From assembly GCF_000027125.1 (NCBI RefSeq), contig NC_017626.1: a DNA stretch of 64,000 nt, one strand, 5' to 3'. Below the pieces are notes generated by a model, which did no database searches, was not told the DNA's origin, and worked only from the letters and a program-made list of their open reading frames with translations. Of the stretch, positions 40,367 to 44,983 are shown in pieces (the first letter of the stretch is position 1; every line of letters begins with the position of its first letter). Source of the DNA: Escherichia coli 042 (lineage in GTDB: Bacteria; Pseudomonadota; Gammaproteobacteria; Enterobacterales; Enterobacteriaceae). The translations under genes and the position numbers were made by a program.

Positions 40367-40884
40367 AACCCATACTCCAGACGGAACAGCAGGCAGTGCT
40401 CGACGGCTTTCGCCACGTATTTTTTCACGGAGCTGATGGAAACACCGAGTTTGTGCGCAATCTCGCTGTATGTCAGACCATCCAGTTGCGAAAGCAGAAA
40501 CGCTTCACGTGTTTTGCCGTTTAGCCCGTCCAGCATGCTGTCGAGGAGTTGTAGGGTCTCGAGTTGGCTTTCGCGTTCCTCAGGTGAAGGCGCTCCCCCC
40601 TCCGGCATAAGCGCCAGCATCTCCAGATACGCTTTTTCCAGCGCGTTTCGGCGAAACAGGTCCACCATCACGCGTTTGGCGATAGTGCAGAGGAAGGAGC
40701 GAGGATCGCGGATCGTCGAGAGCGTTTCGCTGACCATTACCCGCAAAAAAGTGTCCTGGGCAATGTCATCTGCATCAAAAGCAGACTGGAGTTTGCGCGT
40801 CAGCCAGCTTTTCAACCAGCCGTGATATGTGCCATAAAGCGACTCGAACGTTAAGGAAGCTGTGGTAGTGGCGCGGTCAGACAT
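40363..40884 (-). CDS. fecI: ECF sigma factor FecI
   Basis: 173 aa sigma-70 family ECF protein. Confidence 0.9.
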
Positions 40885-40919
40885 GCGGAGTGCATCAAAA
40901 GTTAATTATCACGTAGTCA

Positions 40920-40950
40920 TATTAATATGAGAATGGTTATCATTACAATT
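40920..40950 (-). promoter_or_regulatory. Putative Fur box in fecI promoter
   Basis: Minus-strand gtaatgataaccattctcat resembles Fur consensus GATAATGATAATCATTATC; ~40-60 bp upstream of fecI start. Confidence 0.5.
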
Positions 40951-41175
40951 GGAAATAAAATTGTTTCCAATAGACATTTTTAACATGTTGTTTTTCTAAG
41001 TGTTATAAGGTAGGTATAAAATGGGATGGAGCCTCTGCTTCTGGCATGTGTCGGTCAGAATGACTCATGATGTGGTCTGCTATTATTGACATCCTCACTG
41101 CCCTAAAGGATGGGGATTTCGGTAATGCTGCCAACTTACTGATTTAGTGTATGATGGTGATTTTAAGGTGCTTGC

Positions 41176-41451
41176 GTGGCTTCCATTTCCATCAGATGTC
41201 CTTCCTGCTCCGCTACTGAAGGCGTGGTGCGTAACGGCAAAAGCACTGCCGGACATCAGCGCTATCTCTGCTCTCATTGTCGTAAAACATGGCAACTACA
41301 GTTCACTTACACCGCCTCTCAGCCCGGTAAGCACCAGAAAATCATTGATATGGCCATGAATGGCGTCGGATGTCGCGCCAGTGCACGCATTATGGGCGTT
41401 GGCCTCAACACGGTTTTACGTCACTTAAAAAACTCAGGCCGCAGTCGGTAA
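41176..41451 (+). CDS. insA: IS1 InsA
   Basis: [41 protein letters not shown]... Confidence 0.9.
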
Positions 41452-41873
41452 CCTCGCGCATACAACCGGGCAGTGATGTGATTGTCTGCGCTGAAATGGA
41501 CGAACAGTGGGGCTACGTCGGTGCTAAATCACGTCAGCGCTGGCTGTTTTACGCGTATGACAGGATACGGAGGACGGTTGTGGCGCACGTCTTCGGTGAA
41601 CGCACTCTGGCCACACTGGAGCGTCTTCTGAGCCTGCTGTCGGCCTTTGAGGTCGTGGTATAGATGACGGATGGCTGGCCGCTGTATGAATCACGCCTGA
41701 AGGGAAAGCTGCACGTTATCAGCAAGCGTTACACTCAGCGCATTGAGCGACATAATCTGAATCTGAGACAACATCTGGCAAGGCTGGGACGGAAGTTACT
41801 GTCGTTCTCAAAATCGGTGGAGTTGCATGACAAGGTCATCGGGCATTATCTGAACATAAAACACTATCAGTAA
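41370..41873 (+). pseudogene. insB: IS1 InsB with internal stop
   Basis: Canonical ...VIWMTDGW... reads ...VV*MTDGW... here (TAG at 41661-41663). Confidence 0.7.
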
Positions 41874-42598
41874 GTTGGAGTCATTACCTCCTCCCGAACT
41901 CAAAGCTATCATACAGATAATTACTGGTTAACCCTATATAGGGCATTTTAAAGTGTTGTGATCTTACCCAGCAATAGTGGACACGCGGCTAAGTGAGTAA
42001 ACTCTCAGTCAGAGGTGACTCACAAGACAAAACAGTTTCAACCAGTAAAAAAACGTAAACACCATTCGCATGAATTTCGTAGTTAAGATCTGAAGCTTGC
42101 AGAATGCATCGGTGTTACTGCCGGAGTCCGTGAACTTAGTCTGCATGAATCACCACAGCTTTACATCTGTCGCAGTAAACAGCAAAATCAGCAAACTTAC
42201 TTAATTATATCGAGTGCGATTACAATCGCTGGCGATGGTACAGTTGGTGTGGCGGTCTCAGTCCGGAACAATTTGAAAATCAGAATCTCACTTAAAACGG
42301 CATCCATTTTATAAAAGATGGCCGTCTGTGTATTTGTAATGAATACCTTCTACATGTTTAGAGTGCATAATCCACGACAAGGCGATATCCTAAAAATTAG
42401 CTAGCAGGCAACTTTGATGGCATAGATAATGTTTTTAGTAAAAAAGAGTTGACTGAATATAATACAGCCTCTTCCTACATAAGAAGGAATGTGCTCACAA
42501 AAAAAAACCATTAGTCTGCTTCCTGTTCTTACAATAATCAGTATTATGTATTTTATTTATATAGCAAAATATGCTTGTTACACCTGTCATAATTAGGC

Positions 42599-42892
42599 AT
42601 GGTAAAATTATTGACTGAACCCTGGGGGAGAAAGATGCACAGTGATTATTATAATATGGTTTTTGGTGAAAAATTGGCCAATATTTTATATGAAGCTAAC
42701 TCTCAATTTTTTTACGAGAGAAATGTCATAGAAGAGGCAGTCAACGCTTTATTCTGTGAGCGTGAAATAATAAACAACAAGAACATAATAAAGAAGCTGA
42801 TGTTCTTTTTGTCAGATGTTAATCACACCAAGAAAGATGTTGTTCAGAGCGCACTTAATATTATCATTGACATTACATCAGGTGATATTTGA
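42599..42892 (+). CDS. Hypothetical protein (97 aa), AT-rich
   Basis: Supplied ORF only; no recognisable motif. Confidence 0.25.
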   Translation: MVKLLTEPWGRKMHSDYYNMVFGEKLANILYEANSQFFYERNVIEEAVNALFCEREIINNKNIIKKLMFFLSDVNHTKKDVVQSALNIIIDITSGDI

Positions 42893-43211
42893 GATTTTAC
42901 ATAAAAGATAATCTCTCAAGGAGTCTTATCTGAAAACGAAATATATAGTTCCTCTCGTTTTGTAATATCGATTGGCTTTGTTGAATCGGTTACGTACCCC
43001 GGAGCCGGTCATATTTTCAGGTAATACACACGCTTTCAGACATTTCGGCTTTCGTCATTTTTGTATCATGGGCATAGCTTCTGCTACCTGACCATCATAA
43101 TCACGCAGCTTCAGTGAAGCAGTGACCACCTGTTTAACCCGGTGTATCGTTATGATCTTATCCAGCAATTGAACCGCCCCGGGTTTCCTGGAGAGTGTTT
43201 TATCTGTGAAC

Positions 43212-43343
43212 TCAGGCTGCCAGATCATCGTTTCCGATGGAAGCATAATAAGCTTTTTCTGCTTCTGCCGGTGGGATATGGCCCTGCCTTTCCAGCAATC
43301 GTCGATTGTTATACCAGTCCACCCACGTGAGTGTGGTCAGCTC
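43212..43343 (-). pseudogene. DDE (rve-type) transposase C-terminal remnant
   Basis: Minus-strand translation ...YDELTTLTWVDWYNNRRLLERQGHIPPAEAEKAYYASIGNDDLAA*; no upstream ORF. Confidence 0.4.
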
Positions 43344-43624
43344 ATCATACTGACACGTGCATTACCCCTACCGCGATAATGCAACCGTACAATATAGGGC
43401 GTTTCCTAAACGCAGCCCTCATCACTCCAATCCAACAAGACACAGCATTTTTGATCACGAAGAAAGACAAATAATTTCCGTAAATGTTTCCGTTGTTACA
43501 AATAACAACAGTGTTTTACATTTCTTTGGCCTCAGGCCCGCGCATGTTGCCATTCGATGTCATTTTCCTGACTCGTTTCTTCTTTATGGTGTAGTGTGAT
43601 CTTCACTTTATGGATGCGAACAAT

Positions 43625-44983
43625 ATGAAAAGAAAAATTATTCCCGTGCTAATCGGTTGTACGCTCTCTTTCTCTGCCCTGGCGGCACAACCTACGGCTG
43701 AGCGCTATGTCGTCAGTTTTCCAGAAGGCACGCACGTGAACTACGCCGGCGCATTTGCCAGTGCATTCCCGAACGGCCTTCCGGTTGGGATAGGTTCTGG
43801 CCTGCTGTTCACCGGTAAACAGGGCGATGCCCTGACATTCGCAACCATTACCGATCGCGGTCCGAACGCGGATTCACCGAAAGAGGGGAAAAACGAAACT
43901 AAAATTTTCGTTACGCCAGATTTCGCGCCGCTGCTGATGACGATTCGTGTACAAAACGGCAAAGCGGAGGCCATCGATCCCCGTCCTCTGCATGACGATA
44001 AAGGCGCGATCAACGGTCTGCCGCTGGCAAGCGACGTGATTGGCTCCACCAATGAAGTGGCCTTCAGCGACACGTTACATAGACTGAAGGGGGATAATCG
44101 CGGGCTGGATACGGAAGGGATCACTCCGGATGGTAAAGGAGGTTACTGGCTGTGCGATGAGTATGGCCCGTTCCTGATTAACATCGACAGTAAAGGGAAA
44201 ATCCTGGCAATCCACGGTCCGCAGGCGGCGGAAGGGGAAAAAGCGATTGCGGGCGGTTTGCCAAATATCCTCAAATGGCGTCAGGCGAACCGCGGCTTTG
44301 AAGGCCTCACCCGTATGCCGGACGGGCGTATTATTGTCGCCGTGCAAAGTACGCTGGATATCGACGCTAAGAGCAAGAAAAAGGCGCTGTTTACGCGTCT
44401 GGTGAGCTTCGATCCGGCAAGCGGAAAAACCGCGATGTACGGTTATCCTATCGACAGCGCGGCCTACAGCAAAAACAGCGACGCTAAAATCGGAGACATC
44501 GTGGCGCTCGATAACCAGCACATCCTGCTGATCGAACAGGGAAGAGATAAAAACAACAGAATGCGTAACCTGATTTACGAGGTCGATCTCAATAAGGCGA
44601 GCGACCTGTCAGGCTTCGACAAGCCGGGTGAGTATCCGGAGTTTGATGATGAGAAAACCCTGTCACAGCGCGGCATTACCCTTGCGCAGAAAACGCAGGT
44701 TGTTGATCTGCGCTCCTTGGGCTGGCAGCAGGAGAAGGCTGAAGGGTTGGCGCTGATCGACAGCAAAACGCTGGCGGTGGCGAACGATAACGACTTTGGC
44801 GTGAAGGTGGCGATGCAACATCCGGTCGAGGGCAAGACATTCAAGGATTATCGGGTGAACGCGGAAGGAAAGCTGACGCTTGACGACAAGCAGGTTGAAA
44901 CGACCCTCAGAGTGAAGCCACTGGAGAAACCGGAGTCTGACAGTGAACTGTGGATTGTGACGCTGCCGGAAGCGTTGAAATAA
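43625..44983 (+). CDS. Secreted protein, possibly phytase-like esterase family
   Basis: Signal peptide MKRKIIPVLIGCTLSFSALAAQP; ~450 aa Gly/Asp-rich; family call tentative. Confidence 0.45.
   Translation: MKRKIIPVLIGCTLSFSALAAQPTAERYVVSFPEGTHVNYAGAFASAFPNGLPVGIGSGLLFTGKQGDALTFATITDRGPNADSPKEGKNETKIFVTPDFAPLLMTIRVQNGKAEAIDPRPLHDDKGAINGLPLASDVIGSTNEVAFSDTLHRLKGDNRGLDTEGITPDGKGGYWLCDEYGPFLINIDSKGKILAIHGPQAAEGEKAIAGGLPNILKWRQANRGFEGLTRMPDGRIIVAVQSTLDIDAKSKKKALFTRLVSFDPASGKTAMYGYPIDSAAYSKNSDAKIGDIVALDNQHILLIEQGRDKNNRMRNLIYEVDLNKASDLSGFDKPGEYPEFDDEKTLSQRGITLAQKTQVVDLRSLGWQQEKAEGLALIDSKTLAVANDNDFGVKVAMQHPVEGKTFKDYRVNAEGKLTLDDKQVETTLRVKPLEKPESDSELWIVTLPEALK

Follow-up and report, generated by a model that had tools for sequence, protein, structure and literature searches.

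Four insertion sequence fragments around an AriR-like cargo gene in the fec island of Escherichia coli: a probable recombination scar with a putative connector gene

Results

The window, which is the whole stretch of 64,000 nucleotides of Escherichia coli 042 that was analysed, represents the E. coli ferric citrate (fec) island, and the block studied here spans 41889-43600 with fecR and fecI immediately to its left. The features of the block and of its boundaries are collected in Table 1. The PGAP annotation of an identical locus (L001) was used, the window coordinate being the L001 coordinate plus 35888. A preliminary description of this DNA had placed the block between an IS1 copy and a gene for a secreted protein, and both neighbours were confirmed. 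The left one is IS1F, a mobile element that is also annotated at the matching position of K-12. The right one is a phytase-like gene that starts at 43610 or 43625 and has a signal-peptide-like N-terminus (judged by eye, without a predictor). A small gene of 22 codons, ykiE (41021-41089), is annotated between fecI and IS1F in CV839-06, PEC1011, K-12, BL21 and RR1, and it moves together with IS1 onto a Shigella plasmid.

Table 1. Coordinates of the features in and around the block (positions in the window).
Feature	Position	Strand	Basis or remark
IS1F, pseudogenised IS1 copy, left boundary	41121-41888	+	PGAP: IS1F family transposase with internal stop, 41176-41873
Spacer between IS1F and the IS3 relic, 70 bp	41889-41958		41889-41938 accompanies IS1 onto a plasmid of Shigella
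IS3 relic, left part (IS3 nt 1-238; decayed orfA)	41959-42196	+	88.8% identity, local BLAST against intact IS3
IS3 relic, right part (IS3 nt 1134-1227; orfB C-terminus)	42201-42294	+	88.3% identity, local BLAST
AT-rich cargo module (upstream region, AriR-like gene, 70-bp tail), ~575 bp	42383-42963	+	Stretch homologous to the IncFII variant
Candidate promoter (TTTAGT, 18-nt spacer, TATAAT)	42434-42463	+	Relaxed scan; -10 perfect (42458-63), -35 weak
Shine-Dalgarno-like GGGGGAGAAAG	42624-42634	+	Directly 5' of ATG 42635, read from the sequence
YmgB/AriR-family gene, 85 aa plus stop	42635-42892	+	PF10798; PGAP starts 42599 (97 aa) or 42611 (93 aa)
IS903-like (IS5 family) end fragment	42974-43149	-	~76% identity to IS903B over 42997-43149
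Second IS3 left-end scrap (4 bp flank and 17 nt of terminal repeat)	43149-43169	+	90% identity to 41955-41975 (direct repeat D2)
IS1203/IS629 right end (terminal repeat and last ~43 transposase codons, 43212-43343)	43170-43343	-	95.4% identity to IS1203 nt 29-202 (locus L017)
Partly palindromic repeated element, 54 bp, degenerate in the window	43366-43419		Recurrence on plasmids
Phytase-like ('esterase-like activity of phytase') secreted-protein gene, right boundary	43625-44983	+	Pfam PF13449, E 4.6e-43; PGAP

The block was found to be 100% identical to that of the annotated genome of E. coli CV839-06 and was covered over at least 80% of its length in 1,556 of the 5,426 complete E. coli genomes. 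Because it is kept at an identity of at least 99% in about 30% of the complete genomes, it is no chance feature. The region 41959-43348 was also recovered as a single piece of 97.7% identity on an IncFIB plasmid of Shigella flexneri, where it lies between unrelated genes. The homology of K-12 MG1655 to the window stops exactly at 41888, the end of IS1F, and the gene order there is fecI-ykiE-IS1F followed by yjhU, the AriR-like gene of the block being absent. In BL21(DE3) and in RR1 the block is kept up to 42959, at which point it is cut by a copy of IS1A. The AriR-like gene itself is present and identical in BL21(DE3), as ECD_RS21935, and in the K-12/B hybrid RR1, with IS1A and then sgcR behind it (window 41889-42959 was compared with 4432622-4433700 of BL21(DE3), NC_012971.2, and with the region around 4519240 of K-12, NC_000913.3). 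The AriR-like gene is a small regulatory gene-content difference between BL21(DE3)/RR1 and K-12 MG1655.

The nucleotide search for a parental element returned four relics, IS3 twice, one IS903-like and one IS1203/IS629, three of which had been missed in the preliminary description. That description had taken the block for the decayed edge of one inserted element; the IS edges are present, but they amount to at least four fragments of three kinds, and the core enclosed by them is cargo. On the left, the region 41959-42294 aligns as one IS3 copy from which about 895 bp have been deleted internally. The left terminal repeat of 22 nt matches that of IS3 exactly and occurs once in the window, and BLAST against intact IS3 recognised no right terminal repeat, this end being diverged or lost. 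PGAP annotates a frameshifted IS3 orfA pseudogene at 41993-42197 and an 'IS3 family transposase, missing N-terminus' at 42197-42295. A full member of IS3 has terminal inverted repeats with intact orfA and orfB; since the ORFs are disrupted here, this copy is a relic.

On the right of the cargo, the IS903-like fragment carries GGCTTTGTTGAAT at 42974, which we take to be the IS903-type terminal repeat as recognised by eye, and PGAP places an 'IS5/IS1182 family transposase, frameshifted, missing N-terminus' at 43017-43147 on the minus strand. It is followed by the second IS3 left end, which is longer (42 bp) at the same place in the Shigella plasmid copy. The two IS3 left ends (41955-41975 and 43149-43169) bracket the module in direct orientation and have four outer bases in common (GTTG/GTTA), and because of this orientation and these bases they hint that a duplication or recombination, and not a pair of independent insertions, gave rise to them. 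The last relic is the right end of IS1203/IS629, in which the opposite-strand transposase tail reported earlier at about 40 codons was identified. The matches of 43170-43343 carry the annotation 'IS3-like element IS1203 family transposase', and PGAP has an IS3-family C-terminus pseudogene for the coding part on the minus strand; of a complete element of about 1.3 kb with both ends, 174 bp of the right end are left. The GC content of the IS relics is 43-52%, and they are routine island scars of known kinds. Two further ORFs, one of 80 aa at 43357-43599 and one of 63 aa at 43055-43246, were rejected as genes, as they gave no family match and overlap IS relics or the intergenic region.

The 54-bp element to the right of these relics has the core ACGTACAATATTGTACGT, and a perfect 22-bp palindrome is present in plasmid L005. 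About 400 enterobacterial plasmids carry the element at 85-92% identity, often with two copies per record, and it is unannotated. Further copies were noticed at L005:153-205 and ~3365, L024:~650 and ~3020, L025:~3018 and L018:~3178, and the element is positioned at cargo/IS junctions. It could be a miniature element, a scrap of a repeat or an operator. A 13-nt repeat, ATATAGGGC(A/G)TTT, is present at 41936 and 43392, and the gapped alignment around it is weak. A diverged copy of the 54-bp element may lie in the spacer next to IS1F, which is unproven, and the same holds for the idea that two such copies bracket the whole block, for which the 13-nt repeat and the gapped alignment are the evidence.

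The region between the IS3 relic and the IS903-like end differs in composition from its surroundings. Its GC content was found to be 31.7% over 42383-42963, as against 39.5% for the whole block and 49.5% for the window, and the earlier term 'very AT-rich' fits this region, not the block or the IS relics. The module alone was detected in 1,768 of the 5,426 complete genomes and in 87 plasmid places, and the plasmids include those of E. coli, Salmonella and Shigella. About 98% of the copies are at least 99% identical. In addition, a divergent form occurs on the IncFII plasmids L004, L005 and L008, with 87.5% DNA identity over 42383-42957 and 87% protein identity, and there it is flanked by Tn3 fragments and by a toxin-antitoxin pair, TacAT. 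Because this variant is found in an unrelated IncFII context, the ~575-bp module is a discrete unit that moves independently of the fec island, and not IS debris. The module was seen in the fec island, on IncFIB and IncFII plasmids and in BL21(DE3), and its ORF is uninterrupted in each of these contexts, the IncFII one being the variant. Just 3' of the gene (42957-42974), a stretch of about 15 bp takes in three independent junctions: the end of the IncFII homology at ~42963, the IS1A insertion of BL21 at 42959/60 and the terminus of the IS903-like fragment at 42974. This clustering points either to a hot spot for insertions within the AT-rich tail or to selection against events that hit the gene.

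The ORF of 97 codons reported in the preliminary description is present at 42599-42892. Its product, WP_000239862.1, bears the RefSeq/PGAP name 'biofilm development regulator YmgB/AriR family protein', and more than 1,000 contigs were seen to carry the gene. The start assigned by PGAP differs among genomes, being 42599, 42611 or 42635 for products of 97, 93 and 85 aa, respectively. In the IncFII variants a 1-nt deletion inside GGGGGAGAAAG puts ATG 42599 out of frame, with the G-run and ATG 42635 being kept, and all the relatives are 84-88 aa long and align from the methionine at 42635. Because of this frameshift and of the length of the relatives, the comparison favours ATG 42635 as the true start of an 85-aa product, and does not back the starts for 97 and 93 aa. 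The inconsistency of the annotated start is a practical point for users of these annotations. Three protein clusters that had been candidates for divergent homologues with 55-84% identity (P0039, P0040 and P0053) were rejected as paralogues, as they are frameshifted copies of the same gene; their frameshifts are probably homopolymer errors in long-read assemblies of a sequence rich in A/T runs. Similarly, P0028, the representative of a cluster of 620 members, was rejected as the common form because it is a rare allele truncated by Tn3.

The statement that the ORF was without motifs did not hold. The protein matched PF10798 (YmgB) with 26.7 bits against a gathering score of 22.3 (E 4.9e-6), residues 40-96 of the 97-aa form aligning with positions 2-59 of the 59-position profile. 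The sequence of the YmgB crystal structure (2OXL) was matched with an E value of 1.6e-3, residues 40-96 falling on 6-63 of 64. NCBIfam gave no significant model for the ORF or for the relic peptides. The 85-aa protein aligned end to end with K-12 AriR at 28-29% identity and was collinear over its full length with AriR and with three other sub-clades, the relatives being 28-46% identical. Twelve of the 15 invariant or near-invariant columns of the family are kept, the exceptions being I to V, R to Q and E to N. The AF2 model had a pLDDT of 80, and in the fold search the predicted fold matched the helical bundle of 2OXL. An exhaustive HMMER search of 1.84 billion representatives returned two real distant relatives, P0061 (46%) and P0065 (36%), and the remaining matches were fragments of the same AriR-like gene. 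A profile search tied P0061 and P0065 to hundreds of canonical AriR sequences. The gene is, by its profile match and predicted fold, an intact member of a known and already annotated family, and its description as a weak, element-derived frame had to be given up, as it is conserved and of known family. The 2007 paper on the YmgB structure reportedly proposed a resemblance of YmgB to Hha; a resemblance of the AriR-like protein to Hha/YmoA was rejected, Hha being absent from the fold-search matches.

The signals for expression were searched around the gene. The strict scan for promoters and terminators gave counts at or below those expected from shuffled sequence, with nothing on the plus strand upstream of the gene, and the Rfam scan of 40800-43700 (E <= 1) found no RNA family. 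A hairpin at the 3' end was rejected as terminator, as it is no more stable than shuffles (z -0.18). The relaxed scan gave the candidate promoter of Table 1, whose position in the alignment is shared by the window and the two plasmid variants.

When the variants were compared, dN/dS was found to be 0.75 (11.5 non-synonymous and 3.5 synonymous), a value that comes from 15 differences only and is not distinguishable from 1. The density of substitutions was 5.8% in the CDS and 9.6% in the flanks (p = 0.11), and the CDS had no indel as compared with 5-6 in flanks of similar length. The upstream region of about 180 bp is conserved about as much as the CDS by our own count on the variant alignment. 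The signal of purifying selection on the gene in this comparison is weak, and the intact reading frame could reflect recent spread instead, because nearly all the copies are at least 99% identical. The most serious alternative reading builds on this: the ORF would be a functionless hitch-hiker, a recently mobilised AriR gene that is no longer expressed or used and is intact because its copies are young. The dN/dS value, the lack of a significant excess of conservation in the CDS over its flanks, the near identity of the copies, the failure to find a strong consensus promoter or terminator and the position of a gene absent from K-12 amid IS debris are all compatible with it. Against it stand the family residues retained in a sequence collinear with relatives of such low identity, the ORF being uninterrupted in separate contexts that are bounded by IS and have their junctions just beyond it, the lack of indels, and the good ribosome-binding site and perfect -10 kept between variants. 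On balance we consider the hitch-hiker unlikely, and the case for a living gene, as read from the sequence, is moderate at best.

Discussion

The locus is ordinary and already annotated. The block is probably a recombination scar in which repeated IS insertions and deletions would have packed four IS fragments, the internally deleted IS3, the IS903-like end, the second IS3 terminus and the IS1203/IS629 right end, around the one piece of cargo that survived, the AT-rich module with its intact YmgB/AriR protein, translated from ATG 42635 behind the putative ribosome-binding site; this reading includes a YmgB-type connector role of the product. The anatomy of the block and the assignment to the YmgB/AriR family are held with high confidence. 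The earlier view, which takes all 1.7 kb of the block for the decayed edge of a single element and the ORF for a chance frame, draws on the transposase remnants that flank the AT-rich core at both ends, but it is practically untenable and was refuted by the PF10798 match, the IncFII variant, the IS BLAST and the fold search, the remnants being four pieces of three IS kinds, the core recurring elsewhere without them and the ORF being a family member by HMM and predicted fold.

The activity of the product is predicted from what is known of YmgB. Over-expressed YmgB activates the RcsC/D/B phosphorelay, as seen from mucoidy and induction of rprA (PMC10704370, PMC11451591, PMC3509220), and this activation increases colanic acid and lowers CsgD and curli through RprA (PMC3509220). 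It does not need RcsF or the periplasmic domain of RcsC and is blocked by RcsD T411A (PMC11451591). YmgB is known as a homodimer from 2OXL and from two-hybrid assays, its R74 contacts SpoT's TGS-helical domains, and the R74G change abolishes SpoT binding and ppGpp induction with mucoidy and dimerisation being kept (PMC10704370). By analogy, the AriR-like protein would be a small cytoplasmic helical dimer acting as a two-component 'connector', and when expressed it would switch on the RcsC/RcsD/RcsB phosphorelay, so that colanic acid would increase and curli decrease via RprA. Because the module is AT-rich, silencing by H-NS and conditional expression of the gene are likely.

The SpoT arm of this activity appears to be different. 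In an alignment of 34 members the R74 column holds arginine in 31, and glutamine in the other three, namely the window protein and the two variants of 87% identity; the conserved surface arginine expected of a SpoT activator is absent from the window protein. The glutamate next to it is replaced by N or D in the same three proteins, and both replacements of this clade fall in the third helix, where the YmgB substitutions at the SpoT contact cluster. Because the essential arginine is glutamine in this clade, the SpoT arm has probably been lost or changed, and the AriR-like protein probably does not drive SpoT-dependent synthesis of ppGpp. It could be argued that both YmgB activities, Rcs activation and SpoT binding with ppGpp, are retained and couple the fec island or the plasmid to the stringent response, given that the protein has the fold and family of YmgB, which does both (PMC10704370). 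The two replacements, which are confined to this clade, and the effect of R74G in YmgB make this highly improbable. The best reading of the paralogue, if it is expressed, is an Rcs-activating connector with its SpoT arm lost or changed.

The Rcs function itself, which is transferred from YmgB by analogy, is put forward tentatively. The gene stands alone, without ycgZ and ymgA, and it is absent from K-12, and both points count against the connector reading; ycgZ and ymgA are reported to act together with YmgB in a study cited by PMC11451591 (Kettles 2019). A more specific proposal, that a mobile and specialised AriR paralogue without the SpoT-contact arginine serves as an 'Rcs-only' activator, or, through heterodimers with the chromosomal AriR, as a modulator of the coupling of Rcs and the stringent response in its host, is improbable. 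If it were true, such a paralogue would be carried by the fec island and by F-type plasmids, and B strains such as BL21(DE3), which have the gene, would differ from K-12, which does not, in one unrecognised regulatory trait.

About 30% of E. coli, including BL21(DE3), have in this gene a second and divergent AriR-family gene that is absent from K-12, and it could matter when capsule, biofilm and stress phenotypes are compared across strains. As R is naturally replaced by Q at the SpoT contact, the paralogue is a convenient means of testing the separation of Rcs and SpoT activities published for YmgB. Full-text searches of the literature by name and accession returned no paper on this paralogue.

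As compared with the known elements IS3, IS1203/IS629 and IS903, the termini and transposase fragments of the window were matched at 88-89%, 95% and ~76%, respectively, but all the copies in the window are truncated or internally deleted, none is complete and they cannot transpose. A known relative of the cargo gene is AriR/YmgB of K-12 (b1166; 2OXL; PF10798), to which the identity of the window protein is just 28-29%. In K-12, ariR lies within the BluR-controlled ycgZ-ymgA-ariR-ymgC operon beside bluR-bluF, whereas the window gene is outside this canonical location and stands solo in an IS mosaic of the fec island. R74 of YmgB, the SpoT contact, corresponds to Q in the window protein and the adjacent conserved E to N. 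Two further groups, the nearest relatives in the exhaustive search, share the family (PF10798, precomputed for both) and the length of the window protein, namely that of P0061 (46%), carried on IncF plasmids, and that of P0065 (36%), located at the bluF-bluR locus with ycgX on one side and an IraM-like gene on the other. The genes of P0061 and P0065, as seen at L009-L012 (plasmids; P0061), L013-L015 (chromosome; P0065) and L027, adjoin a small gene of the PmrD family (PF11183), annotated as anti-adapter IraM on plasmid pSA31IncF, and the plasmid pair sits among genes for polysaccharide deacetylase, VirK/YbjX, SMR and glycosyltransferase proteins. Small connector genes for stress signalling, of two kinds, appear to be neighbours or to move as a pair. 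P0061 and P0065 keep the R74-equivalent arginine and have the IraM/PmrD-family neighbour, and the gene of the window differs from them in both respects.
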